Below are positions 1,542 to 6,136 of a stretch of 29,715 nt of DNA, in pieces. The notes under the pieces were generated by a model. That model was not told the DNA's origin, searched no databases, and saw only the letters and a list, made by a program, of their open reading frames with translations. The first letter of the stretch is position 1, and every line of letters starts with the position of its first letter. A program made the position numbers and the translations under genes. The stretch lies in the IMG/VR virus record IMGVR_UViG_3300031996_000011, positions 1 through 29,715 of that record; one strand, given 5' to 3'. This DNA is from a virus. Lineage: Duplodnaviria > Caudoviricetes.

Positions 1542-3410
1542 TTATGTGACTCTGCGCAAGCGCTTTGCGCTTGGCGTGCGACCAATGTCGCCAACAGCCC
1601 GCTTCCTCGGCGGTTCGTATTCGAGGATCTGTAGGGCGAGTAGATCGTCGAGGGCTCGACGAAAGAGCGTATTGTCGATTCGACTACTCTTCAGAGCGTT
1701 CTGAACTACCGCCACGGTGGGCGGCTGTCCGCTCTTCTTCGTAAGTCTATCAACCTGATATTCAATCTTCTGAGCTACGATCTGCAGATCGCTTGTGCCG
1801 ATCTGCGTTTCGGGAATACCGTAGGCAGCCTTCAGATACGGATACACCTTGATTGCACAGTCAACCGAATCAGTAGATACGATCTTCTCCCGACTGTTGA
1901 CCGCGAACAGCAGGATGAGCTTCTTTATCGTCAGATCAACGCGAGATAGAATGTCGCCGTGCTGCCCCTTCTGGTCCCGGTCAACGACCTTCATCAAGAA
2001 ATCGTCGTGACGCTCCATCGCTTCGTCGGACCAGTCCATGAGATTACTACCGGTGGAACCTGAGAAGCCAGCTGCGTCCCCGCGAATCTTCTGGAGCGGA
2101 GCGATGGTAGCGGAAAGGTCGATATACCTGCTGCCACTTCGGGCTGCTGCAACACCACGCCTAGCCTTTTCGATACCCGGCGCAAAGATGATACGGTTTA
2201 CCCAGCCAGCTGATTCGTCACTCCTGGTAAGCAGTCCCCTGAGTGCCTTCGGCTGGGAGGTGGTGAGCATTGACCCAAAGGCGTTACGAGCAATAATGCG
2301 CCCGCCGGAACTCCTGGCAGACGCACCAATCTTCTCATCCCCGTCGAAGATCTCCATGAGAATGTCGCGGAGGGTGTTGCCTGTCCGGTTGGTGCGATTG
2401 GAGATTGCACTGAGCTCGTTGTAGTAGATGCAGCCGGTGACAGGATACTCGACCATCTTCTTGCCAAACGGGTCTGCGAGATCCTTCTCCTTGCGAATGA
2501 ACTCGTCAACCAGTGACTCGCCAGAGCCTGCTGATGGAATGTAGCGAGCCCCCTTGCTGGCCGGGTTCGACTCGTCATAGGGAATAGCGAGGTCGATCAA
2601 GCGCTTCAAGTGACGGCTAGCTCGCGACTTTCCAGAACCTGACCGTCCAAGAAGACAGACGAACAGATTGCCCAGCACCGGCTCATCGTCATCGAGCTGA
2701 ATATCCCTGCCGATAGCCAGACCAAGCGCAATCATTCCGCACCAGAAGTGGTACTCCTCTGGTAGATTGTCCTTGCTGCAGGCCTCTAGATAGGCTCGGA
2801 GGAAAGTGTCTTCAGGAACGATATTGCGCCAGCCGAGCTCAAGCTGGAAATTGTCAGGGTCATCTTCGTCATCGTCGTCGCCTTCGATGCTGTGCAACTG
2901 GACAACATTTGAGGACTCTTCGCCTTCTTCCGGAAGTGTGACAACCTTCTCACCACCAGCGATTCGAGTAATCTGCACGCCGAGGCTGAGCGCCATTTCT
3001 TCGCGCAGCTTCGGGAAGGATGCCCCCTCCTTGTAGCCCGGAACAGGATAACCGAAATGGTAGGCAGCAATGTCGAACTTGTCGCCACCCTCACTGCAGC
3101 GGCCACAGTACCATACCTGTTCGTCAGTGTTGATCCATGCACTGGGATCTTTGTCTGCATGGCCGGGAATCGGACAGCTAACCTTGATTCCCTCCTTCAT
3201 GCCCTTCGGGTCAGGGTTAGACTTCCCGCACCATCGGCGATAAGCTTCGAGAATGTCTACGCCGTCGAGTGCGTGGTCGATAGCGAGGTCCGATTCGCTG
3301 CGTTCGCGAGTCTGTTCTGGCACCAGATCAGCGTCGAATACTTCGACCTTCTCTGCCTCTGCAGCTTCCTTAGCCTTCTTCTCAGCTAGCCGCTCCTCAA
3401 GCTTGCCCAT
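1542..3410 (-). CDS. Replicative helicase-like P-loop NTPase (DUF3987-like) with N-terminal CHC2 primase-type zinc finger
   Basis: CPIPGH..D.DPS...WYCGRC..GGD is a CHC2 Zn finger. It is followed by an acidic linker, NLFVCLLGRSGSGKS (Walker A), SAGSGESL, and GWVNRIIF (arginine-finger-like). The start overlaps the primase stop. Confidence 0.8.
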   Translation of the reverse strand: MGKLEERLAEKKAKEAAEAEKVEVFDADLVPEQTRERSESDLAIDHALDGVDILEAYRRWCGKSNPDPKGMKEGIKVSCPIPGHADKDPSAWINTDEQVWYCGRCSEGGDKFDIAAYHFGYPVPGYKEGASFPKLREEMALSLGVQITRIAGGEKVVTLPEEGEESSNVVQLHSIEGDDDDEDDPDNFQLELGWRNIVPEDTFLRAYLEACSKDNLPEEYHFWCGMIALGLAIGRDIQLDDDEPVLGNLFVCLLGRSGSGKSRASRHLKRLIDLAIPYDESNPASKGARYIPSAGSGESLVDEFIRKEKDLADPFGKKMVEYPVTGCIYYNELSAISNRTNRTGNTLRDILMEIFDGDEKIGASARSSGGRIIARNAFGSMLTTSQPKALRGLLTRSDESAGWVNRIIFAPGIEKARRGVAAARSGSRYIDLSATIAPLQKIRGDAAGFSGSTGSNLMDWSDEAMERHDDFLMKVVDRDQKGQHGDILSRVDLTIKKLILLFAVNSREKIVSTDSVDCAIKVYPYLKAAYGIPETQIGTSDLQIVAQKIEYQVDRLTKKSGQPPTVAVVQNALKSSRIDNTLFRRALDDLLALQILEYEPPRKRAVGDIGRTPSAKRLRRVT

Positions 3411-4189
3411 CAGTTGTCACCCCACGGGTTAGTCGTCGTCAGGGCCCAGACAGGATCTGCAGGCTTCATGACAGACATTGGTGAACGCAGGTCGATGAAG
3501 AACGTCTTGTCCTGCGATTTTATGTTCCTCCCCAGCGGGAGGCGGAGCAGATTGCCTAGCTTCTTGCCTTCAAGACTGTCCTGCTTTGGGAACAGTTCGA
3601 TAGAAAGGTTGGGGTATCCAGTGATAGGATCAGAGTCATCCCACTTGTAAAAGTTGTCGCCACGGCTCGGCTTGAGATGGCCGATAGCTGGAATGACGAT
3701 CTCTTGGGCTGCGTATCGCACGTCCTCCGCAGGCATAAGGCCAGTGAAGCCGTAGACGTGAACACCCTTTGCGCCAGAGTAGGCAGTGGCGCAGGGGATC
3801 TCGCACTCTTCCCAGATAGCCTTCATGAGCATCGAGGCCATCATTTTGAGCTGGTAAGTCTGCCACTTCTGGCTCGGATGGGAGCGGTCACGCCAGTCAT
3901 AGCGCGGATTGAACTCGCGAATATTCAGATCATCGTCAGGGTAATAGCCCTGGAACTCGTTTGGCTTGTTTTTCTCTAGGTCAATGTCAAAGGCGAAGAA
4001 CTTGCATTGGTCGCTCGCATTGAGTAGATAGTGCCCGTATACTTTCTCACCGGCAAGGTGAGCATTCAGGTCGGCTCTCGTCCACGGTTCTTCTACCGGA
4101 CTGTACCAACCGCCGGGGTGCGCCAACGCCTTTACATCAGTGCGCGCGATAAACTTTGACGCAAACAGGTTTGCCAGAGTGTCTGACAA
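3410..4189 (-). CDS. Archaeo-eukaryotic primase (AEP), TOTE-primase-like
   Basis: Motifs HL.G....GHY, FFAFDID (motif I), YSGAKGVHVY (motif II), IELFPKQD and GNLLRLPLG. TTG start with GAGGGGG SD upstream. Confidence 0.85.
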   Translation of the reverse strand: MSDTLANLFASKFIARTDVKALAHPGGWYSPVEEPWTRADLNAHLAGEKVYGHYLLNASDQCKFFAFDIDLEKNKPNEFQGYYPDDDLNIREFNPRYDWRDRSHPSQKWQTYQLKMMASMLMKAIWEECEIPCATAYSGAKGVHVYGFTGLMPAEDVRYAAQEIVIPAIGHLKPSRGDNFYKWDDSDPITGYPNLSIELFPKQDSLEGKKLGNLLRLPLGRNIKSQDKTFFIDLRSPMSVMKPADPVWALTTTNPWGDN

Positions 4190-4319
4190 GGAGGTCCCCC
4201 TCAGTTAGAAAAGTGAGTGTTATGCAGTTGTTAGATTGCCGCTCCCGCTGGTCGCAAAGGGGAGAAGGCTGAAACCAGTTATACTTGCTTTGATGGTGTC
4301 GTCTACCACCGGAGCGGCC

Positions 4320-4348
4320 ACCATACCGCCCGGTCGGGCCGGGGTCCA
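4320..4348 (-). promoter_or_regulatory. Putative sigma70/SigA-type promoter for the primase-helicase operon
   Basis: Minus strand TGGACC (4348-4343) - N17 - TATGGT (4325-4320). It predicts a leader of ~125 nt. Confidence 0.5.
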
Positions 4349-4357
4349 GCACGGGTT

Positions 4358-4372
4358 CCCTAGCGTCTAGGG
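4358..4372. promoter_or_regulatory. Palindromic operator-like site CCCTAG-cgt-CTAGGG between the divergent promoters
   Basis: Perfect 6-3-6 inverted repeat. TTCCCTAG (4356-4363) recurs at 4495-4502 inside the spacer of the downstream promoter. Confidence 0.45.
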
Positions 4373-4380
4373 CGTTCGGC

Positions 4381-4409
4381 TTGCGCGGCCCCGCGCTATC
4401 GGCTACCGT
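4381..4409 (+). promoter_or_regulatory. Putative promoter for a small RNA
   Basis: TTGCGC (4381-4386) - N17 - TACCGT (4404-4409). Predicted start ~4416. Confidence 0.5.
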
Positions 4410-4415
4410 GTCCGC

Positions 4416-4488
4416 TAGAAGAGTGAGTGAAACCAGTTAGCAGTAAGAACCGCCGCCCGCGTCGCAACGGGCGGCGGTTCTCTTGCTT
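4416..4488 (+). ncRNA. Putative ~70-nt trans-acting antisense small RNA targeting the primase leader
   Basis: Bounded by a promoter and a 14-bp hairpin. Nt 4416-4439 duplicate 4206-4219 (13/14, the mismatch forming G:U in an RNA duplex) and 4270-4281 (12/12), which lie in the oppositely transcribed leader. Confidence 0.5.
4446..4481 (+). terminator. Strong hairpin, probable intrinsic terminator
   Basis: AGAACCGCCGCCCG (4446-4459) / CGGGCGGCGGTTCT (4468-4481), perfect 14-bp stem with 8-nt loop, followed by CTTGCTT. Confidence 0.75.
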
Positions 4489-4516
4489 GCGCCATTCCCT
4501 AGTCGGAGCCTATCCT
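4487..4516 (+). promoter_or_regulatory. Putative promoter giving a leaderless mRNA for the packaging operon
   Basis: TTGCGC (4487-4492) - N18 - TATCCT (4511-4516). The GTG start at 4524 is 7 nt downstream and has no properly spaced SD. Confidence 0.55.
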
Positions 4517-4523
4517 TCCCGGC

Positions 4524-5891
4524 GTGGGCACTCAGGTCTGGTTCAGAAACGTGGACAACTACATTCGAGAGCTAGTCGAGTGTGGTGAATACCATATTGC
4601 CTGGGATCGAGGTCTACTCGTCAAGAAGAAGATCGACCCGGCGAAGCACGCTGAACTTTACTTTGGCAAGAGCTACCCGTACCGCGTTCTCGTTGTCGGT
4701 GATCAGGGTACTGCCGAACTGCGCCCCGGCGACACAATGGAAAGCCCGTCCGCAGTCTATCCTACCTTCTGCTATGGCGAGCCACCGGCACTCCTAGAAG
4801 AGATGCTGGCGCAGCCTGCTGGTCAGAACCCAGAGTGGTGCGCTGACAAATCACTTCCTCCCGATCAGCGCCCCGTACTCGGACAGGAGCACAGGGTAGT
4901 CATCACGGAGCTACCCAACGCCACCACTGGACCGGGTCGAAAGTTCTTTCGCTACGTCAAGGAACTGCAGGAAGAGTTCCCGCAGGCGATCATTCACGTT
5001 CATGGACTGTACGGCTACAAGGTAGCATTCGGCATGGGCTTCGCCTCTGCAGATATAGAGCCTCGTTCTGCAGCACAGAAGGGGAAGGTTCACCTCCCGT
5101 CTGGGGCTGAGGTGAAATACGAGCGCGCGCAGGCGAATCCTAAGTGGATCACAGTCATGGGCTTCAAGCCGGTCGATCTCGAAGTGCCTCGTAACAGATG
5201 CATGTATAACATCAAGAGCGCGAAGTGGGCTGGCGAAAACTACGACGCGTTGTTTAACTTTAGAGTCAGGGGCAACGGCGGCCCAGTGGATCACGAAAGT
5301 TCTGATGTAGACTTTAAGCCGCCGACTACCAAGAGTCCTTTCAGCACCAGCGGCGAAAAGGCTCGAGCGGGCGACAAGTTCCAGTGCAATACTTGTAGCC
5401 TTCAGAACGATTGTAAGCACTTCCGAGATGGGGCGGTGTGTACGTTGCCTGGAGCAGAACCTACTGAGCTAGCACGATACTTCAAGAGCCGAGACTCCGG
5501 TATGATTATCGACGGACTTGGCACTCTCCTGGCGGCGAATACTCGCCGGCTGGAGAGTGGCCTCCGCGAAGAGGAGACGTTCGGCGAGCGTGACCCTGAG
5601 GTCACCAAGATGATGGGTCAGGTCTTCGAGCAGGGCATCAAGCTCGCTAAGCTAGTTGATCCGGCTCTTCGCGTAGGTCCGCAGGTGCAGGTCAATGTGG
5701 GTGCGCAAGCTCAGGTGGCCGGGGCCAATCCTCAGCAGCTTGTCGCCGCTGCGTTCCGAGCACTTGAGGCACAGGGCTTCGCGCGGGATGAGATCACGCC
5801 CGCGATGGTGCAAGACCTTCTTGTCTCGATGAGCAACCCCCAGAAGTCTCTACCGGAGGCGGTTCAGGGTACTGTCATTTCAGAGGCATGA
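4524..5891 (+). CDS. Degenerate TGT/DpdA-like fold + Cys4 cluster + helical terminase-small-subunit-like C-terminus (hypothetical fusion)
   Basis: IAWDRG and IHVHGL...FASAD resemble TGT-fold DSG and HxxG...SxD motifs. It carries CNTC-x5-C-x8-C and a helical region ending PQVQVNVG. It is the first gene of the terL operon. Confidence 0.45.
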   Translation: MGTQVWFRNVDNYIRELVECGEYHIAWDRGLLVKKKIDPAKHAELYFGKSYPYRVLVVGDQGTAELRPGDTMESPSAVYPTFCYGEPPALLEEMLAQPAGQNPEWCADKSLPPDQRPVLGQEHRVVITELPNATTGPGRKFFRYVKELQEEFPQAIIHVHGLYGYKVAFGMGFASADIEPRSAAQKGKVHLPSGAEVKYERAQANPKWITVMGFKPVDLEVPRNRCMYNIKSAKWAGENYDALFNFRVRGNGGPVDHESSDVDFKPPTTKSPFSTSGEKARAGDKFQCNTCSLQNDCKHFRDGAVCTLPGAEPTELARYFKSRDSGMIIDGLGTLLAANTRRLESGLREEETFGERDPEVTKMMGQVFEQGIKLAKLVDPALRVGPQVQVNVGAQAQVAGANPQQLVAAAFRALEAQGFARDEITPAMVQDLLVSMSNPQKSLPEAVQGTVISEA

Positions 5892-6136
5892 ACATCTGGA
5901 AGCCTATCGACGCGATAGGCGAGTGGGTACTTCACAGAATTGAGGCGCGCGTCCAGCTGCGACTGGGCGTATGCCTCACTCTGGGTTCGCTGCCGTTCTA
6001 TCCGTATCTATTCTGGTCGGGGGAGCCCCCGGTCATTTACTTCCTGTCAGTAGAGGCCGCAACACTGTCAGGACTTGGACTGATAATCGGCGCGCAAGCG
6101 TTGGTACATCTTGAAGAAGGCAATGATGAGCCTTGA
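5888..6136 (+). CDS. Small membrane protein (2 predicted TM segments)
   Basis: ATGA overlap with the upstream gene; hydrophobic stretches LGVCLTLGSLPFYPYLFW and VIYFLSVEAATLSGLGLIIGAQALV. Confidence 0.6.
   Translation: MNIWKPIDAIGEWVLHRIEARVQLRLGVCLTLGSLPFYPYLFWSGEPPVIYFLSVEAATLSGLGLIIGAQALVHLEEGNDEP

Follow-up and report, generated by a model that had tools for sequence, protein, structure and literature searches.

A predicted antisense RNA complementary to the primase-helicase mRNA leader in relatives of Gordonia and Rhodococcus phages

We found antisense control of phage replication described for temperate phages and plasmids of enterobacteria, in excerpts of the papers cited here by PMC number. 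In P1 and P7, c4 is a small structured phage RNA that blocks translation through loop complementarity near the ribosome-binding site (RBS) of a phage mRNA, and sequence differences confer specificity among related phages (PMC12197685). The CI RNA of P4 silences the P4 replication genes (PMC4825925), and in ColE2 an antisense RNA acts on the mRNA of the Rep primase (PMC5304414).

The DNA analyzed here (the window, all 29,715 nt of the 29.7-kb virus record IMGVR_UViG_3300031996_000011) represents ∼38% of its genome by a completeness estimate. Its region 4190-4523 separates leftward primase and helicase-like genes from a rightward operon with terS-like, terL, portal, and capsid genes, and contains a putative small-RNA gene (4381-4488, the unit). 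Like P1/P7 c4, the unit is predicted to pair via unpaired or loop segments near an RBS (PMC12197685). Unlike c4, which targets ant, it would target the primase-helicase operon, its RNA would start at a divergent promoter and be encoded on the other strand from its target, its seed is not conserved across the family, and the relatives of its carriers are reported to be virulent, whereas c4 phages are temperate. Similarly, c4/CI immunity regions have antirepressor, icd, or kil targets, whereas the first target gene of the unit would be the primase, with no lysogeny module evident in the ∼38% of the genome covered by the window. Two-site pairing against the phage's own replication genes is a predicted likeness to P4 CI RNA with seqA/seqC, but CI is processed from the transcript holding its targets and brings about termination in lysogeny (PMC4825925), whereas the unit and its target do not overlap and lie on opposite strands. 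Because the target sites are direct DNA repeats of the unit, they are complementary to its RNA only on the opposite-strand mRNA.

As in ColE2, the control predicted for the unit is post-transcriptional, negative, and exerted on a primase through the 5' untranslated region; stem-loop changes in related ColE2-type replicons shift incompatibility (PMC5304414). ColE2-type RNA is cis-encoded and perfectly complementary, whereas the complementarity of the unit is partial, in trans, and maintained by changes at two sites (PMC5304414). Indeed, the predicted leader (4190-4313) and the predicted RNA (4416-4488) share no positions, unlike a cis-encoded countertranscript and its target, and the unit resides in a tailed phage, with no homologue found in a plasmid search. 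With trans-encoded sRNAs such as lambda PreS (PMC12197685), the unit would share its own promoter, a terminal hairpin, a short seed, and action in trans. It would differ from PreS-type sRNAs in being directed at a single, neighboring phage target, whereas those have host targets or many targets. To our knowledge, Hfq is absent from Actinobacteria.

An earlier note, made from the sequence of this DNA, had likened the unit to C4 and CI RNAs. The likeness extends to the mode of action, i.e. predicted multi-site pairing near an RBS, and not to membership, considering the opposite strand, the lack of target overlap and of a lysogeny context, and the lack of an Rfam match. The Rfam search, c4 and P4 CI included, gave no match at gathering score in the window and 17 related loci; in 4100-4600 there were only five sub-threshold hairpin matches. 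The same note had proposed an RNA switch acting directly on replication genes; the predicted target is indeed the primase-helicase leader, although P4 CI (PMC4825925) and ColE2 (PMC5304414), as excerpted, are precedents.

The intergenic region and its surroundings

Features of the region. Positions are those of the window.
Feature	Position	Strand	Details and basis
Helicase-like gene, 622 aa	1542..3410	-	phrog_5311 helicase, E 3.7e-105; DUF3987; 1-nt overlap with preceding primase
AEP-type primase (AEP-TOTE), 259 aa, first gene of leftward operon	3410..4189	-	TTG start; phrog_5362; PF22548 AEP-TOTE
Shine-Dalgarno-like GAGGGGG	4196..4202	-	predicted locally folded (unpaired ∼0.2); sequence, folding
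Proximal target site, -30 to -17	4206..4219	-	C/U-rich, predicted mostly single-stranded (unpaired ∼0.7); repeat match, folding
Leader hairpin CTCCC/GGGAG	4238..4269	-	loop UUGCGAC (4251-4257) complementary to predicted small-RNA loop; folding, putative kissing contact
Distal target site	4270..4281	-	12/12; repeat match, cofold
7-nt site complementary to 3' tail (4482-4488)	4284..4290	-	repeat match
Predicted primase-operon promoter TGGACC-N17-TATGGT	4320..4348	-	TGGACC 4348-4343, TATGGT 4325-4320; putative start near 4313
Predicted small-RNA promoter TTGCGC-N17-TACCGT	4381..4409	+	TTGCGC 4381-4386, TACCGT 4404-4409; co-occurs with hairpin in relatives
Predicted small RNA, ∼73 nt	4416..4488	+	unpaired 5' body 4416-4439 and terminal hairpin; folding, promoter/hairpin arrangement
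Predicted terminator	4446..4481	+	perfect 14-bp stem, loop CGUCGCAA (4460-4467), then T-rich tail; inverted repeat, fold test
Predicted terS promoter TTGCGC-N18-TATCCT	4487..4516	+	7 nt upstream of GTG; pattern match
Terminase small subunit-like (terS) gene, 455 aa, first gene of packaging/structural operon	4524..5891	+	phrog_6902, E 1.9e-62; no Pfam match

The window primase is 38-43% identical to primases of Gordonia and Rhodococcus phages and matches 117 records, from Gordonia, Rhodococcus, and Tsukamurella phages, all at <60% identity. By these sequence comparisons the window phage is related to the Gordonia CS, CX, and DF phages and to Rhodococcus phage DocB7, and blastn of 3400-5900 against phage records returned no match. 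Excerpted reports describe the CS, CX, DF, DocB7, Reynauld, and Trogglehumper relatives as lytic by prediction and consider their tyrosine recombinase to be no integrase (PMC13313380, PMC4563357), and several of them as having direct terminal repeats (PMC13313380, PMC5559632). Lysogens could not be isolated for GordTnk2, Gmala1, and GordDuk1 (PMC4563357), and in one paper the recombinase of GMA3 is interpreted as possibly being an integrase (PMC4524720). We found a tyrosine recombinase in 20/25 relative records searched, including all 16 complete ones, whether or not the unit is present, and a link between the unit and lifestyle was thus rejected. This recombinase is short (open frames mostly of 272-318 aa), is a core gene in phages reported to be lytic, and is a candidate for dimer resolution.

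Several other features of the window were recorded. At 455 aa, the terS-like protein is longer than usual, and it has invariant cysteines (C226, C288, C291, C297, and C306) that suggest a metal site. Its mRNA may be leaderless (4511-4526), with 7 nt between the -10 match and GTG, a spacing shared by several relatives. A rightward, 5'-open, repeat-like reading frame (3-983, +) is convergent with the primase operon, has a hairpin at 905-953, and gave no match in PHROG and Pfam searches. Two ORFs, of 53 aa (4427-4588, +) and 71 aa (4137-4352, -), overlap the intergenic region.

The sequence reads as the earlier note had it: 4416-4439 joins two motifs with separate copies at 4206-4219 (13/14) and 4270-4281, the primase has a Shine-Dalgarno (SD) sequence at 4202-4196, and promoter-like hexamers occur on both strands. 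In a scan of the window (≤3 mismatches for the 14-mer, ≤2 for the 12-mer), each motif was found only at its two places, plus one degenerate match. A separate pattern scan for the 14-mer gave 60 scattered single matches. The motifs share the TG at 4428-4429, so that at most 14+10 (or 12+12) pairs can form simultaneously. Local alignment of 4190-4320 with 4400-4523 scored 49 (shuffles 20.8 ± 3.9; 0/5000) and is collinear between 4201-4290 and 4411-4488. It adds two matches to the two motifs, the GTCGCAA loop (4461-4467 and 4251-4257) and the tail CTTGCTT (4482-4488 and 4284-4290); a further match is CAGTTAG (4434-4440 and 4202-4208). None of the three is named in the earlier note. The 14-bp inverted repeat (4446-4459/4468-4481, 8-nt loop) is indeed perfect, with a folding z of -4.6 (0/200 shuffles). 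The promoter-like sites are weak by the Escherichia coli consensus, and a standard scan with that consensus predicted no promoter in 3900-5200; promoter matches in the window and its relatives refer to loose patterns devised for this analysis. A primase promoter pattern of the TGGACC-N17-TATGGT type is listed for 39/67 non-redundant intergenic regions.

The unit in relatives and its match to the primase leader

Searching with a profile built from 40 primases brought in 77 and 73 loci, and three cultured phages raised the number to 153. We kept 82 distinct regions in which primase and terS were matched from near their starts and lay ≤720 nt apart, and dropped the others. A hairpin above our own score threshold is present in 46 of the 82 intergenic regions and absent from 36, and the unit is therefore dispensable. 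Of the 55 non-redundant regions no longer than 350 nt, 29 have the hairpin, and 22 of these also have a middle + promoter match, as against 1 of the 26 without a hairpin (p 4e-8). A minus-strand promoter to the right of the hairpin was seen in 1/41 loci, and the 15 nt 3' of the stem are T-richer on the + side than on the - side (5.6 versus 3.3). Units measure 67-147 nt in relatives, have a patchy distribution on a tree of 74 loci, and are poorly conserved (36% mean column identity); aligning 13 units did not give the quality that a covariance model requires. Locus scans with a single protein as query yielded no locus for the primase and one for terS (L001), which has a short intergenic region without the unit.

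Other motifs and genes were seen in these regions. CCTA/TAGG, in either orientation, occurs in the spacers of 11/25 terS, 2/27 unit, and 3/39 primase promoters, including the window terS spacer (4493-4510), and may be a late-activator site. CCGATAG/CTATCGG recurs between promoters. Small genes lie between the unit and terS in L216, L099, L283, L069, and L081; those of L216, L099, and L283 resemble one another, and a ACATACCTTAACGGCGTGGAA-like motif common to the three lies after them. In L117, the unit has two strong tandem hairpins.

Cultured phages of cluster DF (GMA3, Gmala1, GordDuk1, and Jumbo) carry the hairpin. Part of the primase SD region is repeated at the hairpin in GMA3 (12 nt; record positions 77082 and 77626) and, across the record ends, in Gmala1 (7 nt) and GordDuk1 (9 nt). 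For Jumbo, no exact 7-nt match was found, and SD pairing, assessed by eye, occurs only with G:U pairs. Our own pattern found no + promoter upstream of the GMA3, Gmala1, or Jumbo hairpins. The cluster DF primase/terS gaps are long (∼440-800 nt) and AT-richer, and their anti-SD hairpin is located close to terS, as in L315:180-750 (GMA3), L317/L318 (Gmala1), and L239 (Jumbo). The hairpin was not found in the corresponding regions of Demosthenes, HayZem, MrWormie, Monty, Orchid, Reynauld, and Trogglehumper, nor on the single side of the record junction examined in Mbo2 and DocB7.

Co-variation was assessed in 41 non-redundant hairpin loci, including the window. The loop matches its own primase leader over ≥7 nt in 17/41 loci, compared with 2/41 in the reverse orientation and a cross-locus mean of 2.3 (maximum 9 in 10,000 permutations). 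The body matches its own leader in 20/41 (6.2 cross-locus), and either a loop match of ≥7 nt or a body match of ≥8 nt is present in 25/41 (3.75 cross-locus), leaving 16/41 loci with neither. Most single seeds are only 7-10 nt long. Permutations leave some shared ancestry, which inflates the cross-locus null and not the own-locus count. No excess was seen in controls using the stem arms (0 and 2 of 41), the terS start (0-1), or primase coding sequence (2), and the signal outlasted removal of the SD zone (8 versus 1.7) and of TCGGA loops (12/35 versus 1.6). Both promoters are matched in 15 loci; the predicted leaders of these loci (938 nt in all) contain 20 anchors, four of them those of the window, and the 1274 nt outside the leaders contain one. 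Seeds are concentrated ≤∼45 nt from the start codon and several are anti-SD, with anti-SD words in the loops of L158, L106, and L080. The matching word differs from phage to phage and is altered in both copies, which is what a co-variation check proposed in the earlier note had called for. Sister taxa illustrate this: GTCGCAA in the window corresponds to GTCGGAC in L067, and AGTCGCGTC in L153 to AAGTCGTGCC in L154. Accessibility-corrected energies agree (own leader -7.6, cross -3.3), the own leader being the best of nine in 17/30 cases. By sequence comparison, unpaired parts of the putative RNA and the predicted leader are thus kept complementary, phage by phage.

A second scan of 71 loci found nine new regions, one of which, a near copy of a cultured CS-type region, was dropped. 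Of the eight new metagenomic loci, a weak held-out set, three pass the hairpin filter, with two body matches (9 and 8 nt) and no loop match of 7 nt. L271 and L272, both below the hairpin filter, show GTCGGAC and TCCAGGGT matches by eye. A search for extra targets revealed no clear excess in five relatives, using a crude ORF caller that often chose the wrong strand.

Predicted complex, proposed mechanism, and alternatives

Cofolding returned the two-site clamp foreseen by the earlier note as the minimum-energy complex, with 4416-4429 paired to 4219-4206 and 4430-4439 to 4281-4272, and with the leader hairpin between the sites intact. Its energy, unconstrained and with three assumed mRNA starts, is -28 to -29 kcal/mol; shuffled leaders give -8.3 ± 2.8 kcal/mol, and 0/300 reach the real value. 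For pairing, the leader ranks first of 464 windows (runner-up -15.2 kcal/mol). The proximal helix (14 bp including one G:U) has a computed energy of -19.2 kcal/mol, and the 7-bp helix of the putative loop-loop contact one of -8.8 kcal/mol as a free helix. As a general rule, the two-site clamp does not hold: the closest relative, L067, has a loop match alone, and the family-wide feature is a loop-or-body match to the leader. The SD-adjacent site of L067 aligns with window 4238-4262, which suggests that the window leader has gained ∼55 nt plus two long sites relative to L067. What stands, as a prediction, is a short unit on the + strand, running from promoter to hairpin, with complementarity to the leader of the primase mRNA.

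In the best explanation, to which we assign a probability of roughly 0.58, 4381-4488 encodes a small trans-acting antisense RNA that would pair with the leader of its own primase-helicase mRNA and block translation. Transcription from a host-type promoter would give a stable ∼73-nt RNA ending at the hairpin. Its loop would first contact the leader loop (GUCGCAA:UUGCGAC), and the unpaired 5' 24 nt would then clamp the sites flanking the leader hairpin. The clamp would cover the open C/U-rich stretch at -30 to -17, the presumed place of 30S loading next to an SD that is predicted to be folded locally, resulting in a standby-site block, a mechanism known from IstR-1/tisB. Since the computed complex leaves the SD uncovered, the proposed repression depends on this standby site. 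As genome copies rise the RNA would accumulate in step, because the RNA gene and its target are on one genome, and primase-helicase output would be damped, a negative feedback as with plasmid countertranscripts.

Among the roles that the earlier note had listed, late-activated shut-off is not favored and dosage feedback is more likely, because the unit promoter is without the CCTA/TAGG spacer motif of terS promoters (found in 2/27 unit promoters versus 11/25 terS promoters). A role in immunity is unlikely: cultured relatives are reported or predicted to be lytic in the excerpts of PMC4563357 and PMC13313380, one genome scan for prophage homologues gave nine candidate stretches and confirmed none, and a plasmid search found no homologue of the region.

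Pairing of the two RNAs could instead have another outcome, such as premature termination or decay of the primase transcript in the manner of P4 CI, activation, or control by the primase leader of read-through from the middle promoter into terS. The co-variation demonstrates complementarity and not its sign, the fold of the SD is unaltered in the computed complex, and P4 CI RNA works by termination, according to the available part of PMC4825925. We nevertheless consider such an outcome unlikely, considering that seeds lie ≤∼45 nt from the start codon and are in several cases anti-SD, that the computed folds showed no long-range SD-sequestering structure for the small RNA to open, and that terS has its own promoter match 3' of the hairpin, the stem of which is spared by the matches.

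The strand symmetry of the data bears on a different reading, in which the matched word is a protein site: the primase or helicase would bind it in the loop of a minus-strand ssDNA hairpin and, repressing its own synthesis, in the leader of its mRNA; alternatively, both copies would be bound by a DNA-binding regulator. The minus-strand loop sequence is the same as the mRNA site sequence, pairing energies do not discriminate between strands (-7.6 versus -7.6 with strands flipped), and the clade to which the window belongs has a recurrent GTCG core. A test for G:U bias was negative: within matched segments, 25 transitions were wobble-compatible and 31 non-pairing (cross-locus 51%), and in the flanks the counts were 10 and 17. 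The G:U result and the equal energies also count against the antisense reading. A protein site is quite improbable all the same. The matched words are diverse (GTCGGAC, TGGGAAAG, AGTGCAG, ATCCCTCC, CTGGGAAGA, and GGCAGGCTC) and are often in the body instead of the loop, the hairpin-linked + promoter and + side T tail would be left unexplained, and the copies avoid the promoter region (1/21 anchors), the expected place for an operator.

There is very little probability that the hairpin and repeats belong to an origin of replication or a site for packaging, the short transcript then being a primer or forming an R-loop, despite the location between primase and terS and the ability of AEP primases to start at hairpins. 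The same primase and terS occur without the unit in 36/82 regions, and the unit is also absent from the examined CS, CX, Reynauld, and Trogglehumper regions. There are only two copies, as opposed to the three or more regularly spaced repeats kept with an initiator gene that mark iterons, and the genomes of cultured relatives end in terminal repeats, their annotated primase lying 4-15 kb from the left end (excerpts of PMC5559632 and PMC13313380). A local duplication next to an ordinary terminator, with a functionless match, would fit the collinearity of the two window stretches over ∼90 nt and the low conservation of the unit, but is highly improbable in view of matches that across 41 loci are confined to unpaired parts and leave stems unmatched, and of a survey of strong hairpins elsewhere in the window and in five relatives, which match nearby 75-nt windows in just 18/337 cases, true units included. 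The best non-unit match, which may be due to chance, is in L219:7114-7151 (G001), a second strong hairpin, with 10 nt of its loop recurring 100-175 nt upstream, inside a structural gene.

Implications for phage replication control

A literature search, mostly of titles and abstracts, found nothing describing the element (the repeat tables of PMC4524720 may include the GMA3 hairpin), and the words "primase" and "actinob" do not occur in the accessible text of a 2025 review of phage sRNAs (PMC12197685). The RNA-type control element preceding the primase-helicase genes, predicted from sequence across this lineage, is thus apparently undescribed.

More speculatively, and with considerable doubt, the unit could be a trans-acting remake, in virulent actinobacterial phages, of the switches that govern copy number and incompatibility in plasmids: a genome-dosage-sensing RNA would throttle the primase-helicase, and the rewriting of seed and target between sisters would mean that superinfecting kin with the same seed are blocked, whereas those with other seeds escape. 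If the preferred antisense reading is true, a trans-acting RNA directed against the phage's own primase-helicase in phages reported to be virulent would amount to replication feedback during lytic growth, and the family would offer a clean natural series of seed-target co-evolution. Cultured carriers of the hairpin exist in cluster DF (GMA3, Gmala1, GordDuk1, and Jumbo), and the CS and CX phages on Gordonia terrae, without it, would serve as controls.
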